Source: a virus. From it: 13,250 nt of DNA. Both the position numbers and the translations under genes were made by a program. The stretch's first letter is position 1. Every line of letters starts with the position of its first letter. The DNA is taken from UHGV virus genome UHGV-0070257. One strand, 5' to 3'. Of the stretch, positions 5,418-10,276 are shown one piece after another. The notes under the pieces are model-generated. The model searched no databases and was not told where the DNA came from. It saw only the letters and a program-made list of their open reading frames with translations.

Positions 5418-6169
5418 GCTTAAACAGTGATTATCAGAAACTTGAGCCGGGCAATGTTGTCCGGCTTTTTGATGTCGATGGCACCGCATTTGGTGTTTCC
5501 GACGTTCTCCGCTTCCACGCCCACAATATTGCCCACACTCCCGATGAAATTGCCGCTGCTGGTGGAGATGAAAATAAGCTACCGGCGAAATCGATCTGGT
5601 GGCAGGGGCAGGAATATAAAGCCTGGCCCTGCCAGATAGAGGGAATTGAGACTGCGACCGACGGGACCAGTGCGCAGCCAACGCTCTCGGTCGCTAACCT
5701 GGATAGTTCCATTACGGCGCTGTGTCTTGCTTATGATGACCTGCTGCAGGCAAAGGTCACCATTCATGACACACTGGCGCAGTATCTGGATGCGAAAAAC
5801 TATCCGGAGGGCAACCCGTCTGGGGATCCTCAGCAGGAAAAGCTGAAGGTGTTTTACATAGACGCCAAGAGCACTGAAACCAACGAGGTGGTGGCGTTTA
5901 CGTTGTCCAGTCCGATGGACCTGCAGGGGCTGATGATCCCGACGCGCCAGTTACATTCGCTTTGTACCTGGTGCATCCGTAACAAATACCGCTCCGGTGA
6001 TGGTTGTGACTACGCCGGAACTCGCTATTTCGACAAACTTAATAATCCTGTTACCGATCCTTCGCGCGATGAATGTAACGGCACGCTCACCGCGTGCAAA
6101 TTGAGGCATGGCGAGGGGAACGAGTTGCCGTTCGGTGGTTTCCCTGGCACATCCCTGATCAGGAGTTGA
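5414..6169 (+). CDS. L: minor tail protein, lambda L-like (251 aa) with C-terminal Cys cluster
   Basis: ATGA overlap with the M stop. Motifs WQGQEYKAWPCQIEG, TSAQPTLSVANL, DPQQEKL, CTWCIRNKYRSGDGCDYAG, CKLRHG and FGGF correspond to lambda gpL as recalled, including the cysteines of its iron-sulfur site. Confidence 0.9.
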   Translation: MSLNSDYQKLEPGNVVRLFDVDGTAFGVSDVLRFHAHNIAHTPDEIAAAGGDENKLPAKSIWWQGQEYKAWPCQIEGIETATDGTSAQPTLSVANLDSSITALCLAYDDLLQAKVTIHDTLAQYLDAKNYPEGNPSGDPQQEKLKVFYIDAKSTETNEVVAFTLSSPMDLQGLMIPTRQLHSLCTWCIRNKYRSGDGCDYAGTRYFDKLNNPVTDPSRDECNGTLTACKLRHGEGNELPFGGFPGTSLIRS

Positions 6170-6170
6170 T

Positions 6171-6881
6171 ATGCGTCAGAAAATTATCGACGCCATTATG
6201 GCGCATGCCGCTTCTGAATATCCCCGCGAATGCTGCGGCGTAGTGGTGCAAAAAAGCAGGGTGCAGCGGTACATTCCTTGCCGTAATCTGGCAACCGATC
6301 CGACAGAGCATTTCCACCTGTCGCCGGAAGATTATGCCGCTGCCGAAGACTGGGGAACAGTGATTGCCATTGTCCACAGTCACCCGGACGCAACGACACA
6401 GCCGAGCGAACTGGATAAGGCACAGTGTGACGCTACGTTACTTCCGTGGCATATCCTCAGCTGGCCGGAGGGGGATCTGCGTACCATTCAGCCGCGGGGC
6501 GAGTTGCCGCTACTTGAGCGCCCATTTGTGCTCGGTCATTTCGATTGCTGGGGGCTGGTGATGAGCTATTTCCGGCAAACGCATGGCATTGAGCTGACGG
6601 ATTACCGCGTGGATTATCCCTGGTGGGAAGACAGTTATCCCGAAAACTTCTACCACGATTGCTGGTATGAATGCGGATTCCGTGAATTCAGTGGCGTACC
6701 GCAGCCAGGTGATATGGTTATCATGCAGGTCCAGGCCAATAAGTGGAATCACGCGGGAATTCTACTGGAAGGTAACATGCTGTTGCATCACCTGTATGGG
6801 CACCTCAGCCAACGTGTGCCATACGGCGGCTACTGGCAAGAAAGAACAATGAAGGTACTTCGCTATAAGACTCTAGCTTAA
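6171..6881 (+). CDS. K: tail assembly protein, lambda K-like (236 aa) with JAB/MPN metalloprotease and NlpC/P60 motifs
   Basis: RBS AGGAG; start overlaps the L stop (TGATATG). JAMM-type motif E...HSHPDATTQPSELD and Cys/His pair (DCWGL ... HAGILL) seen in the translation. About 37 aa longer than lambda gpK (199 aa). Confidence 0.88.
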   Translation: MRQKIIDAIMAHAASEYPRECCGVVVQKSRVQRYIPCRNLATDPTEHFHLSPEDYAAAEDWGTVIAIVHSHPDATTQPSELDKAQCDATLLPWHILSWPEGDLRTIQPRGELPLLERPFVLGHFDCWGLVMSYFRQTHGIELTDYRVDYPWWEDSYPENFYHDCWYECGFREFSGVPQPGDMVIMQVQANKWNHAGILLEGNMLLHHLYGHLSQRVPYGGYWQERTMKVLRYKTLA

Positions 6882-6887
6882 GCCCAT

Positions 6888-7331
6888 TTAGGTGGACTGT
6901 TCCCCTGGAATTTCCACCCCAAAACCATCCGCATCCCAAGTCTTTTCCCAGACTTCGTAACCTAACTCTTTTAGGCGACTAAAAGTTTTTTTGAAAACAG
7001 TGTTGAAATCATCGTCACTAAGTCCGTCCAACTCAAGATCGCTGAGATGAATATGGAATGTGGAATGACCAATCCGTACCTTTTTGTTGATCTCTGAAAA
7101 AGTCCTTTTGAATATTATTTCAGAGAGTTCATCCCTCGCTTTTTCAACAAGTTGAATTGCATCTTGAGCAGAAATTACTTCATCTTCACGTAATTCGCTA
7201 AGGAAGCTGTTGTCGAGACGTTGAACTATTTCAGCATTCATAGAGCGGTTATTGGATTTTGCTGCATCTTCAATTTTTTCTTTTAATTCAATTGGTAATC
7301 TTATTCTTAGTTGAGGATCTTCTCTGCTCAT
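6888..7331 (-). CDS. Arc/Mnt-family ribbon-helix-helix DNA-binding protein with about 100 aa acidic C-terminal extension of unknown function (147 aa)
   Basis: N-terminus PQLRIRLPIELKEKIEDAAKSNNRSMNAEIVQRLDNSF fits the Arc/Mnt RHH pattern (beta strand with alternating residues, then N-[SA]-E-I-[VY]-Q-R helix), by pattern recognition only. RBS GAGG 7 nt upstream of the ATG on the minus strand. Convergent with K, 6 bp apart. Confidence 0.75.
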   Translation of the reverse strand: MSREDPQLRIRLPIELKEKIEDAAKSNNRSMNAEIVQRLDNSFLSELREDEVISAQDAIQLVEKARDELSEIIFKRTFSEINKKVRIGHSTFHIHLSDLELDGLSDDDFNTVFKKTFSRLKELGYEVWEKTWDADGFGVEIPGEQST

Positions 7332-7366
7332 TTGGTTGCCTCACTCAAAAAGTTCACATTATGTAA

Positions 7367-7440
7367 ATTATGCCCCACGGTGGGGTTGACATCAATGACG
7401 CACGGTGTGACACTTTATGTGTCCCACCGTGGGGCATAAT
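7367..7440. promoter_or_regulatory. divergent promoter/operator region: two inverted copies of ATTATG-CCCCAC(G/C)GTGGGG, overlapping back-to-back promoters
   Basis: Arm 1 (7367-7385, attatgccccacggtgggg) and arm 2 (7422-7440, tcccaccgtggggcataat) are reverse complements at 18/19 positions, and each core is itself near-palindromic. Leftward promoter: -35 TTGATG (minus strand of 7390-7395), 17-nt spacer containing box 1, -10 CATAAT (minus strand of 7367-7372). Rightward promoter: consensus -35 TTGACA 7386-7391, 17-nt spacer, extended -10 TGtGACACT 7406-7414, which would place box 2 at the transcript start. Confidence 0.6.
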
Positions 7441-7450
7441 TGGAGGGGTT

Positions 7451-7618
7451 ATGGAAAAAGCTAAAGATATGTACCAGCGTAAGGTTCGATTTCCTGAAGA
7501 TGTCCGGTTGGCGATAGAGAGAAATGGGGAAGATGAGTGCCGTCAGTTCAATACTGAGCTCATCTATCAGTTGAGGAAAGCGTACGGATTAGAAGGGGGG
7601 AAGAGTGAACAAGCATAA
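7451..7618 (+). CDS. small Arc-like ribbon-helix-helix repressor (55 aa)
   Basis: SD GGAGGGG 7442-7448 then ATG 7451. Translation MEKAKDMYQRKVRFPEDVRLAIERNGEDECRQFNTELIYQLRKAYGLEGGKSEQA is comparable in size and pattern to P22 Arc (53 aa; RWP...NSEIYQR). The track start at 7370 would place the operator boxes inside the ORF and is rejected. Confidence 0.65.
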   Translation: MEKAKDMYQRKVRFPEDVRLAIERNGEDECRQFNTELIYQLRKAYGLEGGKSEQA

Positions 7619-7625
7619 AAACAGT

Positions 7626-7660
7626 GAAACCCAGGAGTGCGCGAACACCCTGGGTTTCTT
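7626..7660. terminator. perfect 10-bp stem-loop (GAAACCCAGG - 13 nt loop - CCTGGGTTTC) with U-rich flanks on both strands; candidate bidirectional terminator/attenuator
   Basis: Read directly: 7626-7635 is the exact reverse complement of 7649-7658. It is followed by TT on the + strand and by ACTGTTTTTAT on the - strand. It lies between the Arc-like gene stop (7618) and the first ATG of the next gene (7692). Confidence 0.45.
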
Positions 7661-7691
7661 ATCGAAGAAATCCTTGGCAGGAAATATCGAC

Positions 7692-8273
7692 ATGAACAGT
7701 GTAACGAAAGAAGAGCTGAACTTCCATGGCATTTCTCTGCAGCCGGCTCCTGATATCGATGGCATCTGGCTGACCGCTAATCAGATTGGTTACGCGCTTC
7801 AATATGCAGACGATAAAGCTGTTCAGCGAATTTTTGCTCGTCATATTGATGAGTTTACAGAAAAAATGACAAGGGTGGTCAAGTTGACCACCCCTGGTGG
7901 GCATCAGGAAACTAGGGTTTTTTCTCTACGTGGCGCACACATGGTCGCTATGTTTGCCAGAACTCCGGTTGCTAAAGAATTCCGACACTGGGTGTTAGAC
8001 ATTCTGGACCGTGAGGTATCTATTAACTTTCCAGTACCGAAGATGCTCAGCGATCGAGAAGTCCACGCCCACAATGCAAACGCAATGTTCGATTATTTCG
8101 AGATTATGTGTGAAGCATGGTTTAACCAGATAGAGCCAGCGTTGAGGGCGATTGAGTCTCCGCTCGCAGGCCGTCTTCACGATCGTTTCAATGATGGGGC
8201 CGCGTTTATGTACATGATTAAGACTCATGCTGAACTACAGCTTCAGGAAGGAGAAAGGCCAAGAATCTACTGA
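7692..8273 (+). CDS. antirepressor-like protein with Bro-N/AntA-type N-terminal domain (193 aa from ATG 7692; alternative GTG start 7605 gives 222 aa)
   Basis: Segment NFHGISLQPAPDIDGIWLTANQIGYALQYADDKAVQRIFARHIDE...PGGHQETRVFSLRGAHMVAMFARTPVAKEFRHWVLDIL fits the phage antirepressor N-terminal domain pattern (F.F...GE.W..A..I...L... ending F..WV). Family call is pattern-based, not searched. Start is ambiguous: GTG 7605 has a G-rich SD but puts the 10-bp hairpin inside the ORF. Confidence 0.6.
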   Translation: MNSVTKEELNFHGISLQPAPDIDGIWLTANQIGYALQYADDKAVQRIFARHIDEFTEKMTRVVKLTTPGGHQETRVFSLRGAHMVAMFARTPVAKEFRHWVLDILDREVSINFPVPKMLSDREVHAHNANAMFDYFEIMCEAWFNQIEPALRAIESPLAGRLHDRFNDGAAFMYMIKTHAELQLQEGERPRIY

Positions 8274-8296
8274 ATTTGCAATGCTGCAAATAGAAA

Positions 8297-8320
8297 AGCC
8301 GATAGTTAGGGCTATCGGCT
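8297..8320. repeat. perfect 9-bp inverted repeat AGCCGATAG-TTAGGG-CTATCGGCT between the two antirepressor-like genes
   Basis: Read directly. No T-tract follows, so it is more likely a protein-binding palindrome or RNA processing/stability hairpin than an intrinsic terminator. Confidence 0.4.
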
Positions 8321-8350
8321 ATCCATAAATCTGTCATAAGGGTCCAACCA

Positions 8351-9094
8351 ATGACTTCATTAAATTTAGCAGTAAATAGCGCTAATGTCACCGAGAAAAC
8401 CATTGATAGCCAGTACTTGCTGGAGATGGTGAATGCTGCGCGAAAGCAATGCGGTGAGCCGGCTGTCCGAAATAACAAGTTCATTGAGAAGGTTGTTGAT
8501 GAGCTTGAAGGGGAGACCTACACAAAAAGTGTAGGTCGTAAAAATGGTCAAGACATTGAAGTAATTACAATGTCTATCAAGCAAGCCCTCCGAGTAGCCG
8601 CTCGTGAATCGAAAGCCGTTCGACGTTCTCTGGTTGATAAGCTGGAAGATATGCAGGTATTACCAGCGATGCCAAAAAGCAACACAGGTATCACTGAGTA
8701 CCGATTGGCTAAGGCAGAACAGTTGAAAGCCCAGGCATTGGAGAAGAATATCGCGAGCGCGCGGGAAATCATTACTCTGCTTCCTAGATTGGATCCGATG
8801 GCACATCAGGTGCTCACGGCATCGTTGATTAATCCGCTTATTGGTTATGACGCCATCCCGTTACCTGTTATCGAGGAGCATTACCACACTGCGAGTGAGG
8901 TGGGGGAGATGCTGGGGGTTTCTGCTCAGAAAATTGGACGCGTTGCTAACACACACAAGCTGAAGACAGAAGCGCATGGCAAGTTCTTTCTGGACAAGTC
9001 GGCCTACTCAAGTAAACAGGTTGAAGCGTTCCGGTACAACACTAACGGAATTGATGCGTTGCGCCATCTGATTCATGGTGCTGATGTGGCATAA
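8351..9094 (+). CDS. phage antirepressor/regulatory protein, Rha-like N-terminal region and KilAC-like C-terminal domain (247 aa)
   Basis: RBS AAGGG. N-terminal TIDSQYLLEMVNAARKQCGEPAVRNNKFIEKVVDEL resembles the Rha-family pattern. C-terminal HYHTASEVGEMLGVSAQKIGRVANTHKLKTEAHGKFFLDKSAYSSKQVEAFRYNTNGIDAL resembles the Ant/KilAC C-terminal domain. Pattern-based assignment. Confidence 0.6.
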   Translation: MTSLNLAVNSANVTEKTIDSQYLLEMVNAARKQCGEPAVRNNKFIEKVVDELEGETYTKSVGRKNGQDIEVITMSIKQALRVAARESKAVRRSLVDKLEDMQVLPAMPKSNTGITEYRLAKAEQLKAQALEKNIASAREIITLLPRLDPMAHQVLTASLINPLIGYDAIPLPVIEEHYHTASEVGEMLGVSAQKIGRVANTHKLKTEAHGKFFLDKSAYSSKQVEAFRYNTNGIDALRHLIHGADVA

Positions 9095-9127
9095 ATTTCA
9101 AAGCAGTTAAAATGTTTTTGCTATCCC

Positions 9128-9155
9128 AACCCGCTTAACTGCGGGTTTTGTCGTT
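9128..9155 (+). terminator. intrinsic terminator candidate (AACCCGC-TTAACT-GCGGGTT then TTGTCGTT)
   Basis: 7-bp stem and 6-nt loop followed by a T-rich run, 34 nt after the stop of the 8351..9094 gene. Confidence 0.5.
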
Positions 9156-9204
9156 ACCGGATCCCTGCTACTCTTTTGGCAAATTAATCAAAGGTGATAG
9201 GGAT

Positions 9205-9630
9205 ATGAAAAAGACTTTGCTGCTTCTAATTGCGCTTAGCGTTGCTGGGTGTTCAACCACGGCGGTGAATTCTACCGTTGCAAAACAAGTACCATCTGAA
9301 CGTGTATTGCTGAAGGGGGCTGGTGACTCGGTGATAACAATTACACGAGATCAAGGATGGTTTGCTGGTGGTGGATGCTTTGTAGAAGTAACTATTGATG
9401 GAAAATCCTATGCAAGAATTGATACGGGAGAAACGATCGATATCAATGTTACATCCGGCCGACATATTCTAGGAATATCTGGCGATTCAAAAGGTAAAGG
9501 ATTATGTGGAATGCAGGTCGGACAACCACTCAAAGAGACTGCCACGCAGATCAATGCTCGTGAACATCAAAAATTCCGCATCACCGGAGATACTAATTCC
9601 GGACTTGATATCAGAGCATCAACCATATAG
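9205..9630 (+). CDS. predicted outer-membrane lipoprotein (141 aa precursor), function unknown; candidate superinfection-exclusion or host-interaction moron
   Basis: ATG 9205 with SD AGGTGA upstream. Signal peptide MKKTLLLLIALSVAGC with lipobox L-S-V-A-G-C and Ser at +2 (no Lol-avoidance Asp). Two further Cys in the mature part. The track start 9148 is a TTG upstream of the signal peptide and is rejected. Confidence 0.75.
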   Translation: MKKTLLLLIALSVAGCSTTAVNSTVAKQVPSERVLLKGAGDSVITITRDQGWFAGGGCFVEVTIDGKSYARIDTGETIDINVTSGRHILGISGDSKGKGLCGMQVGQPLKETATQINAREHQKFRITGDTNSGLDIRASTI

Positions 9631-9685: not shown

Positions 9686-10276
9686 ATGCAGCAAGAAGTT
9701 ATGACCCAAATTGAACTGAGCGGGATTCTTGGCAAAACCTTTGGTAAGACGCATCATCGTTTAATTAGCTCAACCCGAGAAGCCTGTCGAGCGCTAGCTG
9801 CAACAGTGAAAGGGTTTGAGGCCTTCATGAATTCAAGTAAACAGCGCGGTCTGACATATGCAGTTTTTCGAGGAAAGAAAAATATTGGGGAAGATGATTT
9901 AGGCTTTCCGGCGACAGGTGAAGTGATCCGGATCGTGCCAGTAGTTATTGGTAGTAAAAAAGCTGGCCTGTTACAAACCATATTAGGTGCCGTCCTTGTT
10001 GTAGCTGGCTACGCTTTGTCAGGTTTTACTGGCGGTGCAAGTATGGCATTGGTCGCACCCGGTGTTGCATTAATGGCTGGAGGCGTAATCCAAATGCTTT
10101 CGCCACAGCCAGCAGGACTTGCCAGCAAACAGGATGCCGAAAATCGGGCTTCGTATGCATTCGGTGGTGTAACTAACACTGCTGCTCAGGGTAATCCAGT
10201 TCCGCTTCTATACGGACGCAGGCGTATTGGCGGGGCGATCATCTCTGCTGGTATATACGTCGAAGACCAGCAATAA
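9686..10276 (+). CDS. I: tail assembly protein, lambda I-like (196 aa)
   Basis: SD GGAGAAG then ATG 9686. Translation ...GEVIRIVPVVIGSKKAGLLQTILGAVLVVAGY...GGVIQMLSPQP...GNPVPLLYGRRRIGGAIISAGI parallels lambda gpI as recalled (...IHIVPRVAGAKSGGVFQIVLGAA...GGVAQMLAPK...QGNVLPVLYGEMRVGSRVVSQEI). The track start 9506 overlaps the lipoprotein gene and the terminator and is rejected. Confidence 0.85.
   Translation: MQQEVMTQIELSGILGKTFGKTHHRLISSTREACRALAATVKGFEAFMNSSKQRGLTYAVFRGKKNIGEDDLGFPATGEVIRIVPVVIGSKKAGLLQTILGAVLVVAGYALSGFTGGASMALVAPGVALMAGGVIQMLSPQPAGLASKQDAENRASYAFGGVTNTAAQGNPVPLLYGRRRIGGAIISAGIYVEDQQ

Follow-up and report, generated by a model that had tools for sequence, protein, structure and literature searches.

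The small antisense RNA sar of phage P22 pairs with the ant mRNA, blocks the initiation of its translation, and is needed for proper control of the antirepressor and for the establishment of lysogeny (PMC12197685, PMC13397905, PMC11016777). Among other small RNAs that act on antirepressors, c4 acts in trans and around the ribosome-binding site, and CA has been described as a "small processed RNA" (PMC12197685, PMC10732415). In epsilon34 and other P22-like phages, the immI region is described as an "ant moron" (PMC2629481). Here, we report on a perfect inverted repeat at positions 7626-7658 of a 13,250-nt stretch of the UHGV virus genome UHGV-0070257 (the whole of this stretch is called the window below). 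The hairpin that it forms is very probably the 3' stem-loop and Rho-independent terminator of a minus-strand cis-antisense RNA, a diverged homologue of P22 sar that would limit synthesis of the antirepressor.

A probable sar homologue between the Arc-like and antirepressor genes

The repeat was reported by a repeat finder as two arms, GAAACCCAGG (7626-7635) and CCTGGGTTTC (7649-7658), which are 100% complementary and enclose 13 nt (AGTGCGCGAACAC). The initial annotation of the window had described a perfect 10-bp inverted repeat here, with exactly these coordinates and this complementarity, and had proposed that its folding energy be calculated. The predicted fold is a strong hairpin on either strand (plus strand, −21.2 kcal/mol; minus strand, −22.8 kcal/mol; z about −5), matched in stability by none of 200 dinucleotide shuffles, and beyond a one-base bulge (a bulged U) its stem gains three to four further inner pairs (GUG/CAC). 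It is the sole perfect 10-bp hairpin with a 3- to 20-nt loop in the window. At least one such hairpin is found in 16.5% of mononucleotide-shuffled windows, and the repeat taken alone is only mildly improbable; what makes it significant is where it lies and that it is conserved.

The hairpin falls within the 73-nt gap between the stop codon of an Arc-like repressor gene and the ATG of an antirepressor (ant) gene. At gathering thresholds, no Rfam family matched anywhere in the window. In E-value mode, the Rfam sar model (RF00262) matched positions 7690-7623 on the minus strand over all 68 model positions (31.2 bits; E-value, 2.2e-4). On that strand the match begins just past the ant ATG (7692), takes in the ant Shine-Dalgarno sequence (7680-7685), and ends short of the Arc-like stop (7618). 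The hairpin corresponds to the 3' stem-loop of the model (positions 34-64), which is preceded by a 5' stem-loop (positions 1-29). The P22 record annotates arc, sar (complement), the sar terminator, Psar (complement), and ant; in that record, sar begins 1 nt ahead of the ant ATG, its −10 element falls within ant codons 3-4, and its 3' end runs into the arc stop codon. All three relations recur in the window, where the elements of the predicted RNA are as follows.

7612-7625, minus strand: tail ACUGUUUUUAUGCU 3' of the hairpin; its run of five U (7621-7617) reaches into the TAA that ends the Arc-like gene (7616-7618)
7626-7658, minus strand: putative terminator hairpin of the sar-like RNA, with its perfect 10-bp stem and the inner pairs beyond the bulge (fold, Rfam model, and covariation)
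7661-7691, minus strand: putative 5' stem-loop of the sar-like RNA, with a GUCGA/UCGAU stem (fold, Rfam model, and covariation)
7680-7694, plus strand: ant Shine-Dalgarno sequence AGGAAA (7680-7685) and start codon ATG (7692-7694), the site that the antisense RNA would cover
7703-7698, minus strand: Psar-like −10 hexamer TACACT, in ant codons 3-4 (AGT GTA), which aligns with TATACT of P22 Psar
7721-7726, minus strand: best −35 candidate, TGGAAG (3 of 6 matches; 17-nt spacer)

Downstream of TACACT, the minus strand reads GTTCAT and then G 7691, the putative start. Over 121 nt it folds into two hairpins (−33 kcal/mol; z, −4.3), and the loop of the 5' stem-loop bears UUUCCU, complementary to the ant Shine-Dalgarno sequence. 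From these elements we infer an RNA of about 75 nt, with its 5' end at G 7691 and its 3' end near 7617-7619. The complementarity of the antisense unit to the ant leader is exact and extends from the base preceding the ATG, across the Shine-Dalgarno sequence, as far as the arc stop codon. In a four-way alignment of the window, P22, Klebsiella phage ST11-VIM1phi8.1, and Escherichia coli phage TL-2011b (the last two retrieved by BLAST), the conserved features are TAYACT at the −10, the start-codon CAT, the anti-Shine-Dalgarno loop UUYCU, and the base of the hairpin (GAARCCC...GGGYUUC).

Relatives were collected by scanning viral contigs with a 25-nt seed consisting solely of the −10 hexamer, CAT, and the 5' arm, which gave at least 119 loci; the number of distinct sequences was 64 to 72 and varied with the length over which they were compared. 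Of the 65 relatives that were folded, nearly all had the 5' stem-loop, the strong hairpin, and the U-tract at lowest energy; six (L002, L022, L029, L040, L106, and L107) had another minimum-energy fold, with the hairpin retained. A covariance model built from the relatives (R1) scored P22 at 58.0 bits and 66 other distinct sequences at 44 to 85 bits, so that a single model spans the window, P22, and those 66, a continuous series of intermediates linking the element to sar. Scanned along the window, R1 gave only one other match above noise, the same hairpin on the opposite strand. Within a one-genome-per-species collection, the seed matched 13 times; the three enterobacterial matches (Kluyvera, Pectobacterium, and Dryocola) carried a sar-like RNA at 66 to 83 bits, and the 10 in unrelated phyla served as a negative control, with nothing found by R1 at any of them.

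Covariation was counted on a model-fitted alignment (A3) of 67 distinct sequences; a MAFFT alignment (A2) mis-registered indels in the upper stem and helix 1. Standard pairs are formed by 95.3% of the cells in A3, versus 28 to 50% when partners are slid by one to three columns, and both partners have changed in 7 of 15 pairs (2 of 3 in helix 1). Cells with both sides changed number 73, versus 19.6 ± 3.3 in shuffles, and none of 500 shuffles reached 73. The fourth pair of the window's own stem is A-U where the consensus has G-C (GAAA/UUUC for GAAG/CUUC), a compensated change, and a near-identical contig (L036; IMGVR_UViG_2859273990_000001) shows the G-U intermediate at this pair. Fold, covariation, and the run of five T agree on an RNA of two stem-loops, of which the 3' one is an intrinsic terminator with a U-tract. 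Counted over viral contigs, over 90 distinct relatives share this two-hairpin fold, with compensatory changes. The initial annotation had raised the idea of a sar-like antisense RNA ending here and covering the antirepressor start, and the Rfam match, the P22 layout, and this conserved, covarying family all speak for it.

An independent sample, fetched purely by similarity to the protein of a second antirepressor gene downstream (see below), had the element in 74 of 80 loci. In those 74 it lies antisense, some 0.7 kb upstream of that gene; the tandem antirepressor module is therefore conserved. Only 8 of 40 related element-bearing loci reached the Rfam gathering score (43). The threshold is conservative for this branch of sar, which is therefore systematically missed by standard annotation, and the family is under-counted.

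For the promoter, relatives were rescanned with a pattern that omits the −10 hexamer, to avoid circularity. TAnnnT was at the −10 position in all 97 distinct relatives (TACACT, 31; TATACT, 31; TACAAT, 26; TAAACT, 5; TAAATT, 2; TATAAT, 1; and TAAGCT, 1). Because TAnnnT is kept on the opposite strand, ant codon 4 is always NTA (GTA, ATA, or TTA) in these relatives, while the encoded residues vary (SV, SI, IV, SL, and NL). NTA codons are generally rare in enterobacteria. An invariant NTA under varying residues points to selection on the DNA and not on the protein, and codon-embedded promoters of this kind would be a clear case of DNA-level selection overriding codon choice. The initial annotation had found no convincing minus-strand promoter; TACACT is present at the P22 position, though weak.

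By analogy with P22, the element would work as follows. Minus-strand transcription would start at G 7691, one base before the antirepressor ATG, from a promoter within the first antirepressor codons (its −10 TACACT being codons 3-4) that faces the arc promoter, and would end at the U-tract near 7617, overlapping the Arc-like stop codon. The 5' stem-loop would present UUUCCU, the complement of the antirepressor Shine-Dalgarno sequence, as a recognition element. The RNA would then pair with the arc-ant transcript, whose promoter lies upstream of arc and is under operator control, and pairing would occlude the ribosome-binding site and limit antirepressor synthesis. Both transcription of the window copy and translational repression by its RNA are steps that we infer from the P22 precedent.

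The plus-strand ant leader (7659-7694) is itself predicted to fold into the mirror hairpins of sar, one of which sequesters the Shine-Dalgarno sequence, with AGGA (7680-7683) paired to UCCU (7672-7675). As modeled, this leader fold suggests an intrinsic damping of ant translation together with loop-loop recognition.

Several points weigh against the identification as an active sar homologue. The Rfam sar score (31.2 bits) is below the gathering score of 43, and the 78.1 bits that the window obtains with R1 are not independent, as the training set included the window (and P22); the Rfam match is independent. A3 was fitted to the model structure and hence leans towards it, and the family sample is phylogenetically clustered, its sequences being related by descent. 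A generic promoter scan did not report the minus-strand sar promoter, and a generic terminator scan missed the hairpin, which lies outside the loop limit of that scan. By consensus, the promoter of the window is poor (−10, 4 of 6; −35, 3 of 6), with no TGn, which is present in 65 of the 97 relatives and in P22; the −35 of P22 Psar (GTGTTA) is likewise 3 of 6, but with TGn. The window promoter stands at the weak end of the family, so that expression of the window copy can only be presumed from its sequence.

Probable one-way termination, possible decay, and the antirepressor start codon

The initial annotation had called the sequence after the hairpin U-rich on both strands and had taken the hairpin for a possible bidirectional terminator that attenuates read-through into ant. 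The former holds for the minus strand, which past the hairpin reads ACUGUUUUUAUG with a run of five U, but not for the plus strand, which reads UUAUCGAAGA with 4 U in 10 and no run longer than two. The same polarity is seen across 94 distinct relatives, in which the 10 nt past the hairpin have a mean of 5.4 T and a modal run of 5 on the sar strand, versus 3.0 T on average and runs of at most 2 on the ant strand. A U-tract on both strands, as expected of a bidirectional terminator, is thus found neither in the window nor family-wide; the T-tract is conserved on the sar strand only, which makes this a terminator for minus-strand transcription. That the hairpin is nonetheless bidirectional, also stopping part of the plus-strand transcription from the arc promoter ahead of the antirepressor gene, is unlikely. 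The stem does fold on the plus strand (at the −21.2 kcal/mol given above), its GC core is followed there by UUUCUUAU if the lower A-U pairs melt, and no separate plus-strand ant promoter was found at 7619-7691, so that termination at the hairpin would lower ant expression. Against this, ant relies on upstream read-through, and an efficient terminator would silence it. The plus-strand tail is also T-poor here and in the family, and the P22 record annotates the terminator for sar only. A partial pause or attenuation on the plus strand is possible in the window copy (UUUC in the stem, then UUAU), not as a conserved property. A repeated mobile-element end and a protein operator were also considered as identities for the repeat and were ruled out, as it occurs as a single copy in the window.

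A slightly less probable reading takes the element for a decaying or silent relic of sar, with a promoter too weak to work and the hairpin kept through recent descent or as a leader structure of the ant mRNA. The window does belong to a subgroup (4 of 97 relatives; CGT before the hexamer, no TGn, and a −35 of 3 of 6) that forms the weakest promoter class. Yet this subgroup keeps A2 and T6 of the hexamer through the rare codon GTA, has both helices intact and a compensated A-U pair in the stem, and has a −35 no worse than that of P22 Psar. It is very improbable that the hairpin instead lies inside an antirepressor coding sequence starting at GTG 7605, the alternative start offered in the initial annotation. 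The reading frame is open from 7605, and one database record (Klebsiella phage ST11-VIM1phi8.1) gives the equivalent long start. An identical 193-amino-acid product from ATG 7692 is, however, on record in 58 blocks of an assembly collection, AGGAAA stands 6 nt upstream of that ATG, and 56 of 90 distinct relatives have an in-frame stop within 90 nt upstream of it; the extension from GTG 7605 would overlap the arc stop and encode RNA structure. Identified as the terminator of a sar-like RNA, the hairpin is fully accounted for and takes its place in a classic regulatory circuit.

Gene neighborhood and a second candidate antisense RNA

The genes around the element, together with a second candidate RNA, are as follows.

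6888-7331, minus strand: Mnt-like ribbon-helix-helix repressor gene, divergent, 147 amino acids (Pfam PF03869, E-value 3e-14; PHROGs)
7451-7618, plus strand: Arc-like ribbon-helix-helix repressor gene, 55 amino acids (PF03869 at 18.9 bits, E-value 0.0014, just under the cut-off; phrog_228, Arc-like repressor)
7692-8273, plus strand: antirepressor gene, 193 amino acids, with Bro-N and P22_AR_C domains (Pfam; phrog_5060/245, anti-repressor Ant)
8287-8391, minus strand: candidate second antisense RNA, against the antirepressor ATG at 8351; not homologous to sar
8351-9094, plus strand: second antirepressor gene (phrog_1726)
9205-9630: lipoprotein gene, after the second antirepressor gene

The Pfam and PHROGs matches bear out the Arc-like and antirepressor neighbors named in the initial annotation, and with the divergent ribbon-helix-helix repressor they make up the P22-type immI gene set. 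Between the divergent Mnt-like and Arc-like genes, a palindromic 15-mer (TGCCCCACGGTGGGG) occurs in three copies, at 7371, 7396, and 7420 (spacing, 25 and 24 bp), and a perfect 19-bp inverted repeat spans 7366-7384 and 7423-7441. A plus-strand TTGACA (about 7386) and a minus-strand promoter-like site (7395-7367) overlap the 15-mers. Judged by their sequence and placement, the 15-mers and the 19-bp repeat (7366-7441) are probably operators for both ribbon-helix-helix repressors.

The regulatory block (6888-9630), which holds the Mnt-like gene, the Arc-like gene, the sar-like RNA, both antirepressor genes, and the lipoprotein gene, is inserted between the tail genes K (6171-6881) and I (9686-10276), which are neighbors in lambda-type gene order. 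The flanking genes form a lambda/N15-like tail cluster (tape measure, M, L, K ... I, J) that is about 77% identical in DNA to N15 and mEp237; with such flanks, residence in a P22-like podovirus late operon, as an "ant moron" in that sense, was not found. Six independent assemblies have the same arrangement of the block between K and I. By megablast, positions 6800-8400 matched two Klebsiella phages among phages, over 8276-8400 only, and gave just two matches, at 77%, among complete E. coli genomes. In the near-identical contig L036, the Rfam family isrI, a Salmonella island small RNA, scored above threshold at 6050-6146, about 5.9 kb from the sar-like element and near the major-tail gene; the window has no isrI match. 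Its occurrence in this relative hints at Salmonella as the home of these prophages.

The second candidate RNA has a predicted promoter, GTGACA-17-TGnTAAATT (8391-8363, minus strand), with a start near 8356 in codon 2 of the opposed gene, and is complementary to the ATG at 8351 and to its Shine-Dalgarno sequence AAGGG. Its terminator hairpin (8320-8297) is followed by UUUUCUAUUU, and the whole folds into two hairpins (−23.4 kcal/mol; z, −3.75). Among 50 distinct upstream regions (from the 80 relatives), TGnTAnnnT is present in all 50, with TGn supplied by variable NCA codons, GTGACA in most, and a GC hairpin followed by a T run in all. Terminator pairing is 100%, against 14 to 56% in slid controls; three of nine pairs change on both sides, giving 21 both-side-change cells, versus 4.6 in shuffles. 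The second RNA matched no Rfam family, and no description of it was found in the literature searched; for antirepressors, the only RNAs named in a 2025 review of small RNAs in phages are sar, c4, and others like them (PMC12197685). It is the more novel of the two candidates. Stx-phage homologues of the antirepressor (about 52% identical) were considered as further carriers of the second RNA and rejected, the one examined (Stx2a_F451) being without the layout.

We judge it somewhat probable that each of the tandem antirepressor genes has an independent, non-homologous antisense RNA of its own, the sar-like RNA (7691-7617) for one and the second RNA, of about 65 to 70 nt, for the other. In this joint reading, each cassette has its promoter in the first codons of the silenced gene and its terminator just upstream, so that gene and antidote would move as one unit, and the extended −10 and covarying terminator of the second RNA are better conserved than the protein sequence that they overlap. 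Inside the coding sequence of the first antirepressor lies a further terminator-like hairpin of 12 to 13 bp (CAGGGGTGGTCAA.TTGACCACCCTTG), followed by TCATTTTTTC (7870-7896, minus strand), which might stop antisense read-through from the promoter region of the second RNA.

Antirepressors decide between prophage silence and induction, and those of some phages cross-induce other prophages. Knowledge of an antisense brake on each antirepressor gene would be useful for predicting prophage inducibility and for annotating the regulatory RNAs of prophages.

Comparison with known systems

The sar-like RNA resembles P22 sar in being antisense within the arc-ant intergenic region, in its two-hairpin architecture, and in a similar loop (CCAAGGAUUU is common to both). 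The two are also alike in size (an expected length of about 75 nt here versus 68 to 69 nt in P22 [PMC12197685]) and, presumably, in mechanism, as both would pair with the ant ribosome-binding site (PMC12197685, PMC13397905). They differ in the terminator stem, which is GAAACCCAGGGUG here and GAAGCCCUGACUG in P22, and in the TGn extended −10, which P22 has and the window lacks. The target here is a short Bro-N antirepressor of 193 amino acids, whereas P22 Ant has 300, and the module lies between K and I in a lambda/N15-like siphovirus tail cluster, whereas that of P22 lies in a podovirus late operon. With the epsilon34-type ant moron, the locus shares a self-contained mnt/arc/sar/ant cassette within a late structural operon (PMC2629481). 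Here, that operon is a siphovirus tail operon, and the cassette also has a second antirepressor gene and a lipoprotein gene.

The c4 RNA of P1/P7 and the CA RNA of N15 are both transcribed upstream of their target and from its own strand, whereas the RNA described here is predicted to be read from the strand opposite its target and to have a promoter and a terminator of its own. No match of the window to c4 or CA was found, by sequence or by Rfam model. What they have in common with the sar-like RNA is that a small RNA blocks expression of an antirepressor (PMC12197685, PMC10732415). Lambda OOP and FinP would be alike as short, constitutive cis-antisense RNAs with an intrinsic terminator that act on the overlapping mRNA, of the type in which the 5' stem-loop serves recognition and the terminator forms the 3' end; they have other targets and no homology, and the best FinP score nearby (14.5 bits) falls on the second candidate RNA and not on the sar-like RNA. 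The microRNA-size 24B_1/d_ant system of phage 24B was also considered as the same thing and set aside, no textual support for this being found.

If the identification holds, sar-type control of antirepressors extends well past the P22-like podoviruses to lambda/N15-like enterobacterial prophages. The kind of element is already known, namely sar; what sets this one apart is its divergence below the Rfam threshold, its short Bro-N antirepressor target, its site in a siphovirus tail operon, and its weaker promoter.

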